Source of the DNA: Candidatus Niyogibacteria bacterium CG10_big_fil_rev_8_21_14_0_10_46_36
GTDB taxonomy: Bacteria > Patescibacteriota > Minisyncoccia > 1-14-0-10-42-19
Assembly (NCBI GenBank): GCA_002772995.1
Contig: PFCO01000005.1
Span: 17,001-81,000 of the forward strand
DNA: 64,000 nt
Direction of reading: 5' to 3'
In this document: piece after piece, positions 6,977 to 52,276 of the stretch
How the letters are laid out: each line of letters opens with the position of its first letter
Position numbering within the stretch: the first letter of the stretch is position 1
Made by a program: the position numbers and the translations under genes
The notes under the pieces: generated by a model
Seen by the model: only the letters and a program-made list of their open reading frames with translations
The model's database searches: none
Told to the model about the DNA's origin: nothing

Positions 6977-7315
6977 ATGAGCTTTCGAAAAGAAAAGCTG
7001 GCATCCCTTCTTTCCCGCATCATACCGGAATTTATATTTTCGCATCTTCGTTATGAAGACGCGCGAGTTACTGTCACCCGGATAGACCTTTCTTCGAACT
7101 TCCAAAAGGCGGTGATTTTTGTTACGATTGACCCAAAAGACAAATCGGAAGAAGCGCTCAATGAGCTCAAAAAAATCCTCTCTTCATTAAGAAAAGAGGT
7201 TGGCAAGAATCTCTCTATGAAGTTTTTGCCGATGTTTGAATTTGAGATTGACGCGGAAGAAGAACACAGGATGCATATTGAAGCGCTTATTGAAAAAATA
7301 AAAAAAGAAAAATAA
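6977..7315 (+). CDS. rbfA: Ribosome-binding factor A
   Basis: 112 aa, LASLLSRIIPEFIFSHLRYEDARVTVTRIDLSSNFQKAVIFV. Sits directly after infB, which is the classic operon arrangement. Confidence 0.8.
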   Translation: MSFRKEKLASLLSRIIPEFIFSHLRYEDARVTVTRIDLSSNFQKAVIFVTIDPKDKSEEALNELKKILSSLRKEVGKNLSMKFLPMFEFEIDAEEEHRMHIEALIEKIKKEK

Positions 7316-7417
7316 CGGCGCAGTGGCGAAGTGGAAACGCTGGAGTCTGTCCCGACGCACTATTATAAATATATAATAATAATGAAGCCGGGGTTCTCAA
7401 TAATCAAAATTTGTAGT

Positions 7418-7489
7418 GGCCCGATAGCCAAGTGGTAAGGCATGGGTCTGCAAAACCCTTATACGCGGGTTCGATTCCCGCTCGGGCCT
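7418..7489 (+). tRNA. tRNA-Cys (GCA)
   Basis: Acceptor GGCCCGA/TCGGGCC, anticodon loop CTGCAAA, variable loop TATAC, T arm GCGGG-TTCGATT-CCCGC. Confidence 0.85.
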
Positions 7490-7579
7490 TCAAAAATTTT
7501 GATTACCGGAACAAAACTCCCATGCGGGGGTTCGATTCCCCCCTGCGCCCCAGCCGGGCATTATAACGACACGACACAT

Positions 7580-23515: not shown

Positions 23516-24871
23516 ATGAAAAACATTTCCTTTCTGCAACTTGCCGTATTTTTTGTATTCATCACAGCAATTATTATTGCGTTTCTTATTTTTGCAGGCG
23601 CCCTTCCTGGCCTGCGCGATACGCGGTTCAAAGACCTCAACTCCCCCATTGAGTTTTGGGGCACACTCCCCCGGCAAGTGATTCTCCCCCTAATCGAAGA
23701 ATTTAATGACAAGGAAGAAAAAAATGTCGCTATCACCTACACGCAATTCAGCGAAGAAGAATACCTCCCGAAAGTTGTGGGCGCGCTTGCGGCAGGCACG
23801 GGGCCCGATATCTGGATACTCCCACAACAAAACTTTATTGAAAATCTTCCGAAAGCGCTCCAGCTAGGGCCGAAGTCATACCCGGAACGGGATTTTCGCG
23901 AAACATTTTTTGACGGAGCAGATATATTGCTATGGCCTCCGGGACGGGTTGCCGCCATCCCCTTTGTGTCCGACCAGCTCGTATTGTTCTGGAACAGGGA
24001 ACTTTTCCGTTCGGCAGGTGTTGCAGATGCACCCAAAAATTGGGCGGGATTTCTAGCCGCATCAGAAACGCTCACGCAAAAAAATTCTTCGGGAACAATT
24101 ACGCAGGCGGGTGCTGCTCTCGGTCTTTTTGAAAATATCACACACGCAAAAGACATTCTTTCCCTCTTTTTCCTCCAGGTAAAAAACCCTATTACTTTCC
24201 TCGCAACGCATGGCTCACAAGACAACTTGCAAGTGGACCTAAAAAGCGCAATAAACGATTCATCTTTTGATACACTCCCGGCAGTTGCAGAGAGCATCCG
24301 ATTTTTTAACCAATTTGCAGACCCCCGCAAACAGTCATACAGCTGGACGCGCAACATGCCCGAAGCCCAAGACGCATTCGCACAAGGACGCTTGGCAATG
24401 TATATTGGGTACGGCTCCGAAATAGAAAAGATACGGAACAAAAATCCGCACTTGGATTTTGACATAGCGGAGATTCCCCAAATATCAACCGGGAGCGCGC
24501 ATGTCACCTACGGGAAGCTTCAAACGCTCGTTCTTTCCCGGCAAGCCGAATCGCTCCGCCAATCCGCAGGCCTCCTCTTTATCAATTTCCTTGCCCGTCC
24601 AGAAAACCAATCTTCTATTGCGGAACGGTTCATGCTTGCACCAACCTCACGCGCAGCACTTTTGGCAGGCAACGATAACCCGCTCCTTGCGACAATCTAC
24701 CGCTCTGCCGTCAAGAACACATTCTGGCTTGACCCTGACCCCGAAGGAACCTACACGATTATCCGCGACATGGCGGAACAGGCAAAACTCGAAATAAAAA
24801 GCATTGAAGACATTATCAATGAAGCACACCTCAAAATGCAGCGGCTTTTAGAAGCCATTGTGTTACCGTAA
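23516..24871 (+). CDS. Extracellular solute-binding protein (SBP family 1-like), N-terminally anchored
   Basis: N-terminal TM, then MalE-like features (PKNWAGF, periplasmic-binding fold length). No permease or ATPase partner nearby. Confidence 0.5.
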   Translation: MKNISFLQLAVFFVFITAIIIAFLIFAGALPGLRDTRFKDLNSPIEFWGTLPRQVILPLIEEFNDKEEKNVAITYTQFSEEEYLPKVVGALAAGTGPDIWILPQQNFIENLPKALQLGPKSYPERDFRETFFDGADILLWPPGRVAAIPFVSDQLVLFWNRELFRSAGVADAPKNWAGFLAASETLTQKNSSGTITQAGAALGLFENITHAKDILSLFFLQVKNPITFLATHGSQDNLQVDLKSAINDSSFDTLPAVAESIRFFNQFADPRKQSYSWTRNMPEAQDAFAQGRLAMYIGYGSEIEKIRNKNPHLDFDIAEIPQISTGSAHVTYGKLQTLVLSRQAESLRQSAGLLFINFLARPENQSSIAERFMLAPTSRAALLAGNDNPLLATIYRSAVKNTFWLDPDPEGTYTIIRDMAEQAKLEIKSIEDIINEAHLKMQRLLEAIVLP

Positions 24872-26271: not shown

Positions 26272-26784
26272 ATGAAAAAACTCATCATCGCTTTTATTAT
26301 CATACTCTTGCTCATACTCGGATTTTTTGCGTACCGCACCCTTTTCTCAACACCTCCGGTAGACATTCCGAACCCGCCGGACGGAGACATAGATACTCTA
26401 TTCCCTATTTCACCTGCAACCCCCACCCCCCCGCTCCCGACCGGAGACAAAATTACAATCACCACACACAAGGGAACCGTAACGACAAATAATTTTTTCA
26501 AAATAGCAAGAGACATCGGGTCTGATGTATACTCACTGGCCGAAACGACTTCATACTACATTACATATTACCGTCCGGACAACAGCTTCCAAATAGCTAT
26601 AGGCTCGCGTCCGGCACAAGCAAGCCGCGCACAGGCAGAAAGCGCATTGGTGAACCTCCTTGGCATAACCGAACAAGAGGCCTGTGGACTGCTTATAAAT
26701 CTCGCTGTCCCCTTTGATGTGGACCCCGCACTAGCAGGCCACAATTACAATCTCAGCTTCTGTCCGGACGGTATTTCATTTTGA
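26272..26784 (+). CDS. Hypothetical N-terminally anchored protein
   Basis: TM KLIIAFIIILLLILGFFAY followed by a P/T-rich linker. Confidence 0.4.
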   Translation: MKKLIIAFIIILLLILGFFAYRTLFSTPPVDIPNPPDGDIDTLFPISPATPTPPLPTGDKITITTHKGTVTTNNFFKIARDIGSDVYSLAETTSYYITYYRPDNSFQIAIGSRPAQASRAQAESALVNLLGITEQEACGLLINLAVPFDVDPALAGHNYNLSFCPDGISF

Positions 26785-27137
26785 CCATGAAAAAAGCCTT
26801 CATAACAATAGCAGTTATCAGTATAGTGTGTTTAAGCGCATATTCACTTGCGCATGCGCAAGAAAGCTTCCAGCTCAATCTATATAATCCGCTCGGAAGC
26901 ATTGATTCGTTCGCCGCCTTGGCGGCATCAATCTTCCGGGCGATTGTTATTATAGCCATCCCGCTTACCGTTATTTTTCTCATCTGGGCAGGCATTCTCT
27001 TCGTTACCGCACGCGGGAACGAAACCCAGCTCGCAAAAGCAAAAAAGGTGTTTGTCTGGTCGGTTATCGGCGCTATGGTAATTGTTGCCGCTTGGGTTAT
27101 CGCAGTCGCCCTTAATAATTCCGTTCAAAATCTATAG
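26781..27137 (+). CDS. VirB2/TrbC-like pilin candidate (paralog 1)
   Basis: Signal peptide ...SLAHA, helix 1, loop TARGNETQLAKAKK, helix 2. 118 aa. Confidence 0.5.
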   Translation: MTMKKAFITIAVISIVCLSAYSLAHAQESFQLNLYNPLGSIDSFAALAASIFRAIVIIAIPLTVIFLIWAGILFVTARGNETQLAKAKKVFVWSVIGAMVIVAAWVIAVALNNSVQNL

Positions 27138-27139
27138 AT

Positions 27140-27508
27140 ATGCGCATCTCGCTTTTCCACAATAAAAAATCCCTCTCATTGCTCAAATATGCTGCATTTT
27201 TTATACTGAATATAGCGCTATTTCACAGAGCATCCGCCCAAAGCGAGATAGATAACCCCGTAGATTCGGGCACTTTTGGAGAGCTCATAACCAAAATTGC
27301 TGCCATTATTACCCAGGTGACTCTTCCCTTGGTTATCCTTTTTTTGATACTGGCGGGCGCCATGTTTGTATTCGGACGAGGCAACCCCCAGCAGCTCGCA
27401 CGGGCAAAAACGATATTTTGGTGGACTGTCATTGGTGCTGCAATTATTGTCGGCGCATGGTTTATAGCAATCGCAATAGATAACTTTGGAAGAGCGCTTT
27501 CGGAATAA
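27140..27508 (+). CDS. VirB2/TrbC-like pilin candidate (paralog 2)
   Basis: Signal peptide ...HRASA, helix 1, loop GRGNPQQLARAKT, helix 2. 122 aa. Confidence 0.5.
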   Translation: MRISLFHNKKSLSLLKYAAFFILNIALFHRASAQSEIDNPVDSGTFGELITKIAAIITQVTLPLVILFLILAGAMFVFGRGNPQQLARAKTIFWWTVIGAAIIVGAWFIAIAIDNFGRALSE

Positions 27509-27568
27509 TACACTGCCTTCAGTTCCGCTCATAACGGAATTGAAATCATTGTATTAACAATAAACCGC

Positions 27569-27592
27569 GGAAGGCGCGTCCCGCCTTCTTTA
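27569..27592 (+). terminator. Rho-independent terminator
   Basis: GGAAGGCG-CGTCC-CGCCTTC followed by TTTAT. Confidence 0.45.
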
Positions 27593-27633
27593 TGAAAAGG
27601 TCATTTACATCCATTTAATTTATTTATTACACC

Positions 27634-27990
27634 ATGATACAGACACTCAAAGACACACGCCCGCTTCTTTGGTTTGCGGCACTCGCGGTGCTCATGCTTC
27701 CATTCTTAGCGGAAGCACAAACCATTAACACATTGCTTCAGGATATAAGCGACATCTTGAACACGGTTATTCCGATCTTGATGATTTTGGCAACTCTCAT
27801 CTTCTTGTGGGGTATTATCACCTACATCACTGCAGCAGGAGACGAAGAGAAGCTGAAGAGCGCACGCACATACATCATTTGGGGACTCATCGGACTCTTT
27901 GTAATGGTTGCGGTATGGGGACTCGTACAAGTATTGCTGAACACGTTCGGCGTAGGAACACCGGGAACGCCTCTTGGACCTCAACAATAA
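27634..27990 (+). CDS. VirB2/TrbC-like pilin candidate (paralog 3)
   Basis: Signal peptide ...FLAEA, helix 1, loop AAGDEEKLKSART, helix 2. 118 aa. Confidence 0.5.
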   Translation: MIQTLKDTRPLLWFAALAVLMLPFLAEAQTINTLLQDISDILNTVIPILMILATLIFLWGIITYITAAGDEEKLKSARTYIIWGLIGLFVMVAVWGLVQVLLNTFGVGTPGTPLGPQQ

Positions 27991-28001
27991 TTCCAACTTT
28001 T

Positions 28002-28047
28002 AAAAACAAAAACCGTCCTCGGGAACGCCGGGGCGGTTTTTGTTTTT
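28002..28047 (+). terminator. Rho-independent terminator (14-bp stem AAAAACAAAAACCG / CGGTTTTTGTTTTT)
   Basis: Perfect 14-bp inverted repeat with a GC-rich interior and a T-rich 3' arm/tail. Confidence 0.5.
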
Positions 28048-28098
28048 GTCCTCTTAAGACAATAGACAACTAATTTTCTAACAGGGTATACTAGAGAT

Positions 28099-28434
28099 AT
28101 GAAACATCTGGTAAAAATATATACGATTACTTATGCATTTTTCGGTGCTCACACCGCGCTTGCCCAGCAAGGCGACTACACCATAGAAGGACTAGTGAAT
28201 AAGATAATACAGCTGGTTATCAACCCCCTCATCACCCTTCTCATGGTGGTGGGAACGGTGGTGTTTTTGTGGGGACTCGTCGAATTTCTTATGAGCCCTG
28301 ATAACGAAGAAAAGCGAAGCACCGGAAAGCGCCACATGATGTGGGGTATCATCGGGCTGTTTTTAATGGCAAGTGCATGGGGCATCGTTTATGTCCTCTG
28401 CGACTTTTTTGAGACTTGCAGCCTGATACTTTAA
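28099..28434 (+). CDS. VirB2/TrbC-like pilin candidate (paralog 4)
   Basis: Signal peptide ...HTALA, helix 1, loop SPDNEEKRSTGKR, helix 2. 111 aa. Confidence 0.5.
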   Translation: MKHLVKIYTITYAFFGAHTALAQQGDYTIEGLVNKIIQLVINPLITLLMVVGTVVFLWGLVEFLMSPDNEEKRSTGKRHMMWGIIGLFLMASAWGIVYVLCDFFETCSLIL

Positions 28435-49186: not shown

Positions 49187-49648
49187 ATGCGACGATTCCA
49201 AGTGCCACAATTTATTGAGGTAGAAGACAAGCTTTTCGGACCTCTCACGCTAAAACAATTTATCTATATCCTTGGAGGGGTGGCGATTACTTTTATTCTT
49301 TGGGTGTCTCTTCCGCTGTTTGTAACAATAATTCTCGGGGTGCCCATTATGGCATTCTCTCTCGGTCTTGCGTTCTATAAAGTGAATGGCGAATCGCTTA
49401 TTACCATTCTCTCACACGGCATCCAGTATCTTTCCCGCTCCCGCCTGTACATCTGGCGTAAAGAGGAAAAAAAGAGGAAAAAACCAAAAGAAGAAATCCT
49501 CCGCAAATCAAAACAAGGACTGGTAACGGTTCCGCGCGGACAAAAAGAAAGCGGACTCTCTAATCTTTCGTGGAGTCTCGATGTGCAAAAGAACTTAAAA
49601 GCAGAGCGCAATATCCCGCAGCCGTTTGAGCTGCGCAATAAAAAATAA
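49187..49648 (+). CDS. PrgI/VirB3-like small membrane protein
   Basis: QVPQFIEVEDKLFGPLTLKQFIYILGGVAITFILW followed by two TM segments. Its position immediately upstream of VirB4 is as seen for PrgI-family proteins. Confidence 0.5.
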   Translation: MRRFQVPQFIEVEDKLFGPLTLKQFIYILGGVAITFILWVSLPLFVTIILGVPIMAFSLGLAFYKVNGESLITILSHGIQYLSRSRLYIWRKEEKKRKKPKEEILRKSKQGLVTVPRGQKESGLSNLSWSLDVQKNLKAERNIPQPFELRNKK

Positions 49649-49649
49649 C

Positions 49650-50342
49650 ATGGAAACACCAGCAGTAAAAAAAAGCAGAGCGGCGCAAAACTTTGTCCCA
49701 CTTCAGGAAATACGGGACGGTATTGCGATTACCAAAGACAAGTCCATGCATGTGGTGCTGATGGCTTCTTCGCTTAACTTTGCGCTCAAGTCCGTGGACG
49801 AACAAGATGCGATTATCTCTCAATATCAAAACCTTTTAAATTCGCTTGATTTTTCTATCCAATTTTTTATTCAGTCCCGAAAACTGGATATTGAGCCGTA
49901 CTTGGACACGCTTCGCGAAGCACTACAGGGCCAATCAAACGAGCTTATAAAAATACAAACCCGGGAATATATTGAATTCGTAAAAAACTTTGTGCAAGCG
50001 GCAAACATCGTTTCAAAGACATTCTATGTTGTCGCTTCATATGTCCCCCCTCTCATTAAGACGAAACGGGGCGGAATGTTGGGGCAGTTTGCTGATATAT
50101 TCAAAAGAAACAAAGAAGACAAAGAGCACTACATTCCGGACGAAGAGTTTGAAGAATACAAAATCCAGCTCTGGCAACGGGTCAATTCTGTAGCAACGGG
50201 ACTCGGGCGCACTGGTGTGCGCGTCGTCCCGCTAAACACCGAGGAGCTCATTGAGCTTTATTATAGCTTGTTTAATCCGGGAGAGATTGAGCGCGGAGGA
50301 ACGCCTCACATAGAAACATCATTAGGAGACGGAGAAGTATAG
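49650..50342 (+). CDS. VirB4 N-terminal-domain-like protein (possible split VirB4 part 1)
   Basis: IAITKDKSMHVVLMASSLNFALKSVDEQDAIISQYQNLLNSLDFSIQFFIQ resembles the extreme N-terminus of Gram-positive VirB4/TraE proteins. ATG at 49650 lies just after the PrgI-like stop. Confidence 0.4.
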   Translation: METPAVKKSRAAQNFVPLQEIRDGIAITKDKSMHVVLMASSLNFALKSVDEQDAIISQYQNLLNSLDFSIQFFIQSRKLDIEPYLDTLREALQGQSNELIKIQTREYIEFVKNFVQAANIVSKTFYVVASYVPPLIKTKRGGMLGQFADIFKRNKEDKEHYIPDEEFEEYKIQLWQRVNSVATGLGRTGVRVVPLNTEELIELYYSLFNPGEIERGGTPHIETSLGDGEV

Positions 50343-50449
50343 CCTGTCCCGCTAGAAATCTCTCGCAAAGAGCCCCACGAGGACAAAACAAATTACAATA
50401 TTATTTTATGAGACATTATTATTTTCAAAGAATAAATTTCTAACGGGAT

Positions 50450-52276
50450 ATGGTGTTCGGATTTGGAAAAAAGAAAAAAGAAGAAAAGGATGATATCCTT
50501 GCAATATTCCCGGAACAAATCTACGAAACGGGCCTTTTGGAATTACGCGACGTTATCGCTCCCTCCGCTCTTGAGATAAGTTCAAATTTCGTTAAATTGG
50601 GGGAGAAATTTACACGCACAATCTACGTGTTTTCATACCCGCGCTTTTTATCGGTGAATTGGTTCTCCCCTGTTATCAACCTTGACCGTGTTTTTGATGT
50701 AGCGCTTTTCGTTCACCCCATAGATACCGCGGAGGTTTTACGCCAGCTCCAAAAGAAAGTTGCCGAGGTTCAGTCTCAGATTCATATCAGAGAAGAAAAA
50801 GGATTTGTGCGCGACCCTGTACTTGATACCGCATACGGCGACCTTGAAACGCTCCGGGATAAATTACAACAAGCGCAAGAACACTTATTCTCTTTCGGTT
50901 TATATATAACGCTTTACGCAGATTCCATTGAAGAGCTGAATAAAACGGAATCAGAAGTCCGTTCTCTTTTAGAATCAAAGCTTGTGTATACAAAACCTGC
51001 GCTCTTCCGCCAGGAACAGGGGCTTGTTGCGGTTTTCCCATTCGGCTCCGACCAGCTCGAAGTAAACTCGCGCCTGAACTCCTCTCCCCTTTCAAGCATC
51101 TTCCCATTCGTGTCTTTTGATCTTACCTCAAATCGCGGCGTACTATATGGTGTAAACCGGCACAACAACAGCTTGGTGCTATTCGACCGATACAGCCTTG
51201 AAAACTACAATTCCGTTATCTTTGGAAAGGCTGGCGGAGGAAAAAGTTATGCAACCAAGCTTGAGGTGCTCCGAGCGCTCATGTTTGAGGGGGAGGTTAT
51301 TGTAATCGACCCTGAACGCGAGTATGAATACCTTGCCGAAACAACCGACGGAAGATATTTTAATATTTCTCTCTCCTCAAACCACCACATTAACCCGTTT
51401 GACCTTCCTGTCCCGCAGGAAGACGAATCTACCGCTGAGATATTGCGAGAGCACATCATTAATCTTATCGGGCTTTTTCGTATTATGATGGGGGGATTAA
51501 GTCCGCAAGAAGACGCTATTTTAGACCAGGCAATCACCGAAACATACGCCTCGCGCGACATCACCGCAGAATCAGATCTTGCGGGCGTCATTCCTCCGAC
51601 ACTCTCCGACCTTGAGCTCATTCTGGCAAACATGGAAGGAGGCGAATCCCTTGCGATGCGCCTGCGCAAATATACTCAAGGAACATGGGCGGACTTCATC
51701 AACAAACCGACAAATGTGGATATCAACAAAAAAATGGTGGTATTTTCCGTCCGAGACATGTCTGACGAACTCCGGCCGGTTGCCATCTATCTTATCGTGC
51801 ACCATATATGGAATGTCATCCGAAGAAACCTCAAAAAACGCCTTCTCGTAGTGGATGAGGCGTGGTGGATTATGAAAGAAGAAGATGGCGCATCATTCTT
51901 ATTCGGTATCGCAAAACGGGCGCGTAAGTATTACCTGGGAGTAGCAACTGTAACCCAAGATGTGGGCGATTTTTTGCGCTCTCCTTATGGCATACCCATC
52001 ATCACCAACTCTTCCATGCAGCTTTTATTGAAACAGTCTCCCGCAACAATAGACCTTGTGCAGGAAACCTTTAACCTTACCGAGGAAGAGAAGTTCCTCC
52101 TCTTAGAAGCGGAGGTGGGAGAGGGTATCTTTTTTGCGGGTCTCAAGCATGTCGCAATCAAAATTATTGCGTCTTACACCGAAGACCAAATCATTACATC
52201 AGACCCCGCTCAGCTCCTCGCAATCAAAAAAGCGAAGCAAGAATTTAAAAGCACCCAAGGGGAAAGTAACTCATAA
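50450..52276 (+). CDS. VirB4/TraE-type conjugative-transfer-like ATPase
   Basis: IAPSALEISSNFVKLGEKFTRTIYVFSYP, Walker A GKAGGGKSYATK, VIVIDPEREY, Walker B LLVVDEAWWI (DEAW). Confidence 0.75.
   Translation: MVFGFGKKKKEEKDDILAIFPEQIYETGLLELRDVIAPSALEISSNFVKLGEKFTRTIYVFSYPRFLSVNWFSPVINLDRVFDVALFVHPIDTAEVLRQLQKKVAEVQSQIHIREEKGFVRDPVLDTAYGDLETLRDKLQQAQEHLFSFGLYITLYADSIEELNKTESEVRSLLESKLVYTKPALFRQEQGLVAVFPFGSDQLEVNSRLNSSPLSSIFPFVSFDLTSNRGVLYGVNRHNNSLVLFDRYSLENYNSVIFGKAGGGKSYATKLEVLRALMFEGEVIVIDPEREYEYLAETTDGRYFNISLSSNHHINPFDLPVPQEDESTAEILREHIINLIGLFRIMMGGLSPQEDAILDQAITETYASRDITAESDLAGVIPPTLSDLELILANMEGGESLAMRLRKYTQGTWADFINKPTNVDINKKMVVFSVRDMSDELRPVAIYLIVHHIWNVIRRNLKKRLLVVDEAWWIMKEEDGASFLFGIAKRARKYYLGVATVTQDVGDFLRSPYGIPIITNSSMQLLLKQSPATIDLVQETFNLTEEEKFLLLEAEVGEGIFFAGLKHVAIKIIASYTEDQIITSDPAQLLAIKKAKQEFKSTQGESNS

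Follow-up and report, generated by a model that had tools for sequence, protein, structure and literature searches.

We analyzed four neighboring small genes, pil1 to pil4, which lie on the forward strand of a Candidatus Niyogibacteria (Patescibacteria) chromosome within a 64,000-nucleotide stretch of contig PFCO01000005.1 (assembly GCA_002772995.1, positions 17,001 to 81,000; this whole stretch is called the window below). A first-pass annotation, made from the sequence alone, had described them as VirB2/TrbC-like pilin paralogs in tandem, set apart from an ATPase cluster. The four forward-strand open reading frames (ORFs) of 111-122 amino acids that it listed are all present, and only the start of pil1 moved: a TTG at position 26781 would give a protein of 118 residues, and the ATG at 26787 is the likelier start because it lies 2 bp past the stop codon of the upstream gene and is used in public gene calls. 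Identical proteins are recorded as COU47_02295-02310 on a 459-kb contig of a Candidatus Niyogibacteria metagenome-assembled genome (MAG), where all four are annotated as “hypothetical protein”, and DNA 100% identical to the window was found in two other independent samples. The location is chromosomal, with gyrA upstream of the array, polA convergent downstream (the pil4 and polA genes overlap by 4 bp at their stop codons), and an even GC content throughout.

All four proteins share the plan that had been reported for them, and the loop sequences quoted in that report are present verbatim. Each begins with a hydrophobic segment that ends in a small-x-small motif followed by glutamine (LAHA↓QE, RASA↓QS, LAEA↓QT and ALA↓QQ in pil1 to pil4, with arrows marking the predicted cut), and then shows, in Kyte-Doolittle windows, two hydrophobic segments of ~25-35 residues separated by a short basic loop. 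By a simple rule, a hydrophobic (h-) region and a small-x-small site were also found in 88 of 93 full-length relatives. The N-termini are of the classical Sec type, and the class III prepilin motif (G↓F/M-x-x-x-E) is absent from all four sequences. The helices had been called strongly diverged, and rightly so: pairwise protein identity is 47% between pil1 and pil2, 38% between pil3 and pil4, and 25-30% across the two pairs. An AlphaFold 2 model of pil3, built from an alignment of 102 sequences (pLDDT 80), places helices at residues 9-20, 22-66 and 71-105, corresponding to a signal helix followed by a helical hairpin of 45+35 residues.

Profile searches assigned all four proteins to PF18895 (T4SS_pilin), with scores of 42.6, 31.6, 45.1 and 48.1 bits for pil1 to pil4 against a Pfam gathering score of 26.6 bits, and E-values of 1.7e-7 to 1.3e-12; with four matches above the gathering score, the shared protein plan is therefore not a product of chance. 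In the TrbC/VirB2 family (PF04956, gathering score 27.9 bits), pil2 passed at 30.2 bits, pil4 fell just under at 26.0 bits, and pil1 and pil3 were not reported. NCBIfam model NF045849 (cut-off 40 bits) gave 39.9 bits for pil4 and 37.4 bits for pil3 over nearly the whole 80-position profile, and poor matches for pil1 and pil2. Every one of the 102 aligned relatives matches PF18895; TrbC is matched by 10 of the 102 (E <= 0.01), DUF4134 by three and Maff2 by one, the last two being what we take to be other VirB2-analogue families. Among 120 database matches, 75 are nearest to pil3. None of the four proteins matches a Pfam family of type IV pilus pilins, and a search for bacteriocin-, holin- or phage-like relatives found no such match in Pfam or PHROGs. 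On this profile evidence, membership of pil1 to pil4 in the Patescibacteria pilin family PF18895 is solid, and the four genes are very probably VirB2-type pilin genes, as had been proposed.

Exact-protein look-ups gave five syntenic loci: L083, L084, L085 (identical to L086) and L087. Common to them is a block comprising the genes for a solute-binding protein (SBP), a 446-aa fusion of a pilin domain with a lysozyme-like domain and a 170-aa protein, then pil1-pil2-pil3-pil4 and convergent polA. A methyltransferase gene and gyrA lie upstream of the block in L085-L087, and the contigs of L083 and L084 end before them; tsaE follows polA wherever the contig reaches that far (all but L084). The series Lactamase_B, gyrA, methyltransferase, SBP and pilins is also found in L089 (Giovannonibacteria) and in L090 (a second Niyogibacteria genome), with five or six pilin-domain genes each.

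Each pilin is well conserved across the syntenic loci. Identity to the window protein is 83-88% for the pil1 core, 76-81% for pil2, 76-88% for pil3 and 74-75% for pil4, compared with 68-70% for PolA, 85% for GyrA, 75-79% for the SBP, 48-68% for the 446-aa fusion and 50-63% for the 170-aa protein. Nonsynonymous divergence (dN) is 0.13-0.21 for the pilins, 0.245-0.257 for PolA and 0.094 for GyrA. Between L083 and L084, where synonymous divergence (dS) is unsaturated, the dN/dS ratio (omega) is 0.087 for pil2, 0.098 for pil4 and 0.108 for PolA. The loop and helix sequences of each paralog are almost unchanged in alignments of orthologs, and variation is located in the signal peptides, an N-terminal extension of pil1 (20-150 residues in its orthologs, none in the window protein) and a variable G/D/R-rich C-terminal tail of pil4 orthologs. 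At the DNA level, blastn detected similarity between the window and L087 only in gyrA and in the segment that runs from the pil1 core to pil3.

A neighbor-joining tree of 74 core columns with 200 bootstraps resolved these proteins into three classes. The pil1 and pil2 clades were each recovered in 200/200 replicates (198 for pil2 when more distant members are included) and together form class A (200/200); pil3 defines class B (198/200) and pil4 class C (191/200), and the two unite in a pil3+pil4 clade (200/200). The pilin domains of the fusion proteins form a clade of their own (191/200). Along the arrays, the gene order is class A (1-2 genes), class B (1-3) and class C (1-2), with an exception in L090, where a basal class-B-like gene lies 3' of the two class C genes. 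Class B is duplicated in L086 and L089. The extra class B gene of L086 (positions 7136-7510, equal to 10544-10918 in L085) is a fifth pilin gene that had been called on only one of the two identical contigs, which indicates that gene callers easily overlook small pilin genes. Six tandem PF18895-like pilin genes also occur in L012 (CAZXUK010000001.1, 4640-7287), a few kb from a Patescibacteria-like polA, and the label “uncultured Gammaproteobacteria” on that MAG is probably wrong.

The spacing of the genes divides the array into parts. From gyrA through the methyltransferase, SBP, fusion and 170-aa genes to pil1 and pil2, gaps are 2-50 bp; the pil2-pil3 spacer is 125 bp and the pil3-pil4 spacer 108 bp. 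Intrinsic terminators had been reported after both pil2 and pil3. The one after pil3 is strong, and an equivalent of different sequence occurs in every one of the syntenic loci. After pil2 we instead found two stem-loops followed by a poor T tract. RNAalifold on five loci predicted 28 pairs for them, six with compensatory changes, and conservation of the spacer (mean column identity 77%) equals that of the genes on either side. A terminator scan detected the second hairpin on the reverse strand only, and because the T tract is weak, a full terminator at this point is doubtful; the stem-loops may be a processing or stabilizing element rather than a simple terminator. Rfam gave no family match anywhere in the window apart from tRNAs. 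A promoter-like site, identified by consensus match only, precedes pil4, and -10-like hexamers picked out by eye near the pil3 and pil4 start codons in several syntenic loci hint that these two transcripts may be leaderless. Individual expression of the paralogs, as had been suggested, is thus plausible for pil3 and pil4, given the conserved terminator and the spacer upstream of each gene, and implausible for pil1 and pil2, because these are 2 bp apart and packed against the upstream genes.

The window also encodes VirB4, TrsD and PrgI/VirB3 proteins of a type IV secretion system (T4SS), in a cluster at ~44.6-56 kb that includes a 751-aa polytopic protein with a weak TrbL match (weakly VirB6-like). 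The genes dnaA, dnaN, yidC and jag lie beside this cluster at 56-61 kb. From the end of pil4 (28434) to the first gene of the cluster (~44640), TrsD (49626) and VirB4 (50450), the gap is 16-22 kb, so the 18 kb given earlier was a fair estimate. The pilin genes are thus not beside virB3 and virB4 in a T4SS operon, and the housekeeping genes polA, pnp-like, uvrD-like and ksgA lie between. A published survey places pilins near virB4 in only 1135 of 1948 Patescibacteria assemblies (Quinonero-Coronel et al, 2025; PMC12102498). We searched all window ORFs with a hidden Markov model built from the window’s own pilin domains and found six such domains in the 64 kb, in the four small genes and two fusions; the T4SS cluster has only one, within a 358-aa fusion. 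The array is therefore the sole source of free pilins for the T4SS within the window. The TrsD-like and VirB4 ORFs look at first like a single VirB4 split in two, with a 107-bp AT-rich spacer between them (49626-52276). We rejected a frameshifted or split gene, as separate TrsD and VirB4 genes near dnaA are the known arrangement in Patescibacteria (PMC12102498).

Table 1 Features of the pilin array, its flanking genes and the T4SS cluster, in window coordinates.
Feature	Position	Strand	Description
pil1	26787..27137	+	116 aa, class A; predicted signal peptide to LAHA↓Q; two predicted transmembrane helices; loop TARGNETQLAKAKK
pil2	27140..27508	+	122 aa, class A; begins 2 bp past pil1; loop GRGNPQQLARAKT
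Two stem-loops, pil2-pil3 spacer	27506-27556, 27568-27590	+	second followed by CTTCTTTAT, weak terminator
pil3	27634..27990	+	118 aa, class B; loop TAAGDEEKLKSART; conserved C-terminal TPxGPxQ tail
Bidirectional intrinsic terminator after pil3	28002..28047	.	hairpin with A and T runs, 94% complementary; AAAAACAAAAACCGTCC ... GGGCGGTTTTTGTTTTT
Promoter-like site TAGACA-18-TATACT	28063..28092	+	10/12 consensus positions; ends 6 nt before the pil4 ATG
pil4	28099..28434	+	111 aa, class C; loop MSPDNEEKRSTGKR; C-terminal CDFF-x-TC motif
Solute-binding protein (SBP_bac_8 / SBP_bac_1)	23516..24871	+	membrane-anchored; Pfam E = 2.5e-24; 9 bp upstream of fusion
Pilin-domain fusion, 446 aa	24881..26221	+	PF18895 33.8 bits; hairpin = residues 183-239
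Conserved 170-aa protein	26272..26784	+	N-terminal membrane anchor; between fusion and pil1
PrgI/VirB3-like	49187..49648	+	PrgI 7e-9
TrsD-like, 238 aa	49626..50342	+	TraC_F_IV 6e-4
VirB4 ATPase, 608 aa	50450..52276	+	P-loop_TraG 4e-24; AAA_10, CagE_TrbE_VirB
Second pilin-domain fusion, 358 aa	53738..54814	+	inside T4SS cluster; PF18895 36.7 bits; hairpin = residues 130-194

The SBP and the fusion of a pilin domain with a soluble lytic transglycosylase (SLT)-like domain that had been placed upstream of the array are both there, as is the 170-aa gene between the fusion and pil1, which the first-pass annotation left unmentioned. The 446-aa fusion consists of a signal peptide, two 4-Cys modules, the PF18895 hairpin and a C-terminal lysozyme-like (SLT_3-type) domain whose predicted structure has a pLDDT > 90. 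The window copy has no Pfam SLT match of its own; PF18896 (SLT_3) is matched by 29 of 35 homologs, with E340, S341, G364, L365 and Q367 invariant. The protein could supply a VirB1-like wall-cutting function, which is missing from most pilin-bearing Patescibacteria in the 2025 survey (PMC12102498). We found no mention of PF18896 in the literature searched.

The second fusion, for which we found 186 homologs, joins a Cys module and a PF18895 hairpin to an uncharacterized C-terminal domain with an invariant H..H..D...HxH pattern (consensus TGGTExGHxxHGxGxPIVD ... HxH). Across 56 homologs, T291, G293, T294, E295, H298, H301, D309 and H355 are invariant and H353 nearly so. This domain has no Pfam match and no sequence match in the PDB; judged from the motif only, it looks like a putative Zn-hydrolase site (LAS/M15-like). 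A 4-Cys module, [WY]xC-x(9-17)-C-x3-C-x(3-9)-C, recurs N-terminal to pilin domains: the 446-aa fusion has two copies, the 358-aa fusion at least one, the pil1 ortholog of L083 (3045-3833) three, that of L084 (1506-2018) one and the window’s own pil1 none.

The SBP holds the same position in L083, L085-L087, L089 and L090, and its gene immediately precedes the pilin block wherever the contig of a related locus extends that far. It has no neighboring ABC permease or ATPase gene, and in L089 it overlaps the next gene by 4 bp. The 170-aa protein has no match in Pfam, NCBIfam or PHROGs and evolves fast, with 43-63% identity across L083-L087 where PolA has 58-70%.

Our best overall explanation, to which we give a probability of roughly 0.7, is that pil1 to pil4 encode four distinct VirB2-type subunits of the chromosomal monoderm-type T4SS. 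From what is established for VirB2-type pilins, we infer that Sec would export each protein and that signal peptidase I would then cleave it behind A-x-A, so that the mature form starts with Gln. As a helical hairpin, the mature pilin would stay in the membrane, its two termini facing outward and its basic loop cytoplasmic, until pulled from this pool and polymerized by the VirB4/TrsD/VirB3/VirB6-like machine encoded 16-22 kb away, beside oriC. The product would be a pilus or channel extension reaching the host cell on which these bacteria live.

Within this explanation, the pilins represent the three classes A, B and C, all of them ancient, and are not interchangeable variants. The class order, kept under purifying selection across Niyogibacteria and Giovannonibacteria, fits fixed and non-redundant structural roles, which could be those of a major and several minor subunits or of the parts of a heteropolymer. 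A series of pilins, in a six-gene array, was reported to be essential in Southlakia epibionticum (Wang et al, 2023; PMC10633639). By transposon sequencing (Tn-seq), each of the PF18895 array genes SEML1_0014-0019 was scored GD/ES/ES (growth-defective, then essential), and a separate stand-alone pilin gene, SEML1_0024, was non-essential (PMC10633639), a pattern that non-redundant subunits would give. On the conservation pattern and the Southlakia data together, we lean toward a mechanism of non-redundant subunits. As for expression, pil1 and pil2 would be transcribed with the upstream SBP, pilin-lysozyme fusion and 170-aa genes, pil3 would be bounded by hairpins and the strong terminator, and pil4 would follow its own upstream spacer; the subunits could therefore be made in unequal amounts.

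Several points weigh against this explanation. To our knowledge, no Patescibacteria T4SS has so far been observed to form a pilus. Cleavage of the signal peptides is predicted from simple rules. Foldseek with the pil3 model returned generic helical hairpins only (best PDB match E = 0.22), and profile searches of PDB sequences and tblastn of plasmids found no solved or plasmid-borne VirB2 relative, so that the Pfam profiles by themselves carry the link to VirB2. Assembly by the distant T4SS cluster is proposed from co-occurrence and nothing else, and saturation of dS in most comparisons leaves omega reliable for one locus pair only. Lineages differ in how many class B (1-3) and class C (1-2) genes they carry, so there has been some turnover. 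Finally, Southlakia belongs to a different class than the window organism, and the essentiality of its upstream array genes in Tn-seq could be a polar effect.

A more elaborate and doubtful possibility is that the three pilin classes co-assemble into a single heteromeric pilus or conduit of a wall-bearing monoderm, with the lysozyme-like and putative Zn-hydrolase fusions built in at its tip or base to cut the bacterium’s own or the host’s wall, and with the co-transcribed orphan SBP capturing returning material. The locus would then be a nutrient-uptake device and not one for secretion or conjugation.

The pilin domain might also be a two-helix anchor, and the four proteins membrane-resident components or regulators that never polymerize, for instance partners of the SBP or of the pilin-anchored hydrolases. 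The same hairpin is, after all, the membrane-spanning part of two larger secreted enzymes, its fold is a generic one, the array adjoins the SBP gene and not virB4, and pili are normally absent from monoderm T4SSs according to a 2025 review (PMC12857230). We nevertheless consider this unlikely, as the profile matches are specific to pilin families (TrbC above its cut-off included), members of the same family do lie near virB4 in the 1135 assemblies cited above, and the Southlakia array sits in an essential T4SS locus (PMC10633639).

The first-pass annotation had read the array as a variable pilin repertoire with antigenic or functional diversification. In such a repertoire, the paralogs would be alternative major pilins, expressed one at a time or exchanged, for evasion or to fit the host strain. 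A model of this kind was proposed for the virB2 arrays of Bartonella and Anaplasma, with Neisseria pilE/pilS and its silent cassettes as a further model, and the possibility was raised for Patescibacteria (PMC12102498). The high divergence of the paralogs (25-47% identity) would suit it, as would the spacers and terminator that set pil3 and pil4 apart, the varying exposed ends (pil1 extensions and pil4 tails), the class B duplications in L086 and L089, and the copy-number change in classes B and C. However, each paralog is better conserved between genomes than PolA, the class-specific loops vary little, and class and order are fixed across candidate phyla. The array contains no direct or inverted repeats linking paralogs, no tandem or simple-sequence repeats and no inverted repeats of the kind that bound invertible segments, hence none of the substrates for switching or conversion that we looked for. 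In their DNA, the paralogs have diverged too far to recombine by homology. In the related genomes, the orthologs are 74-88% identical to the window proteins. The recurrence of identical DNA in two other samples and the individual requirement for all six Southlakia array genes (PMC10633639) argue in the same direction. We therefore regard a variable repertoire as improbable. Old, ordered and individually conserved paralogs favor a multi-subunit structure over an antigenic repertoire, and the “functional diversification” also suggested for the array holds as an ancient, fixed division of labor and fails as ongoing variation.

A last alternative, in which the four only resemble VirB2 in composition and are otherwise unrelated short hydrophobic proteins (holin-like peptides, bacteriocins, immunity proteins or type IV pilus pilins), would agree with their size, hydrophobicity and tandem layout, which many such families share, but this is effectively excluded by the family matches (PF18895 E-values down to 1e-12), and equally lacking are any holin or bacteriocin match in Pfam or PHROGs, a visible class III (prepilin peptidase) signal motif, and a phage or mobile-element context for genes that lie between gyrA and polA at even GC.

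A large part of bacterial diversity belongs to the Patescibacteria, which seem to live attached to other microbes. The T4SS with its pilin array is one of few systems that have proved, by Tn-seq in Southlakia, to be essential for this attached lifestyle. The locus described here is a clean comparative case and makes a heteromeric filament of fixed stoichiometry the structure to look for, with the pilin-anchored wall hydrolases and the linked SBP as candidate parts of the same apparatus. The phenomenon itself is already in the literature, and the window array matches the published description of Patescibacteria arrays in every respect. The modest additions made here are the orthogroup structure, a fixed order of the genes, the SBP link and the pilin-anchored hydrolases.

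The 2025 survey counted 441 VirB2 arrays of 2-11 genes in 383 Patescibacteria assemblies, with a mean within-array identity of 25% and a maximum of 54% (PMC12102498). An array is defined there as at least two PF18895 or PF04956 genes of low identity, in tandem or one non-pilin gene apart; the window has four adjacent pilin genes and a fifth pilin-domain gene one gene upstream. Like the published arrays, ours combines PF18895 (in part with PF04956) and tandem genes with low identity (25-47%), and it is accompanied by a monoderm-type T4SS with PrgI, TrsD and VirB4 near dnaA and no recognized relaxase. A 2025 review takes the Patescibacteria pilin array as a hint of a pilus in a monoderm (PMC12857230). 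Our array differs from the published ones in three ways. Those were reported to be most abundant in Microgenomatia and Saccharimonadia, whereas the window belongs to the Parcubacteria group (Niyogibacteria); the window array is 16-22 kb from virB4, in a conserved gyrA-methyltransferase-SBP-pilin block; and the portions of the papers available to us stress variability within arrays and contain no counterpart to the conservation between genomes and the A-B-C order shown here.

Compared with the VirB2/TrbC pilins of diderm systems, such as the Agrobacterium T-pilin and RP4 TrbC, the window pilins share a length of ~110-120 residues, a signal peptide, two helices and a basic loop, and pil2 is above the TrbC gathering score. 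The Agrobacterium T-pilin is also cut before Gln. Classical TrbC/VirB2 pilins polymerize into extracellular conjugative pili that bind phospholipid, and those of P-type and T-type pili are cyclized. Unlike the diderm pilins, which are usually encoded by one gene inside a virB or trb operon beside virB3 and virB4, there are four here, remote from that machinery and in a monoderm, and BLAST detects no similarity between them and plasmid genes.

Rows of diverged VirB2-type genes whose T4SS acts in host interaction and not in conjugation also occur in Bartonella (the trwL copies of the Trw system) and in Anaplasma phagocytophilum (virB2), as cited in the 2025 survey (PMC12102498). Those arrays are read as surface-variation devices and vary between strains, whereas the cores of the window pilins are conserved and no variation mechanism is visible. 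The Mbov_0395 family (NF045849) of Mycoplasma integrative and conjugative elements likewise comprises a small, two-helix, pilin-like conjugal transfer protein of a monoderm MPF-FATA-type system; pil3 and pil4 score just under its cut-off, and the Mycoplasma gene is single and on a mobile element, in contrast to the chromosomal array described here. These near-cut-off scores make pil3 and pil4 possible relatives of monoderm MPF-FATA pilins, and, to judge from profile similarity, the Patescibacteria pilins may be related to such systems rather than borrowed from a diderm T4SS.

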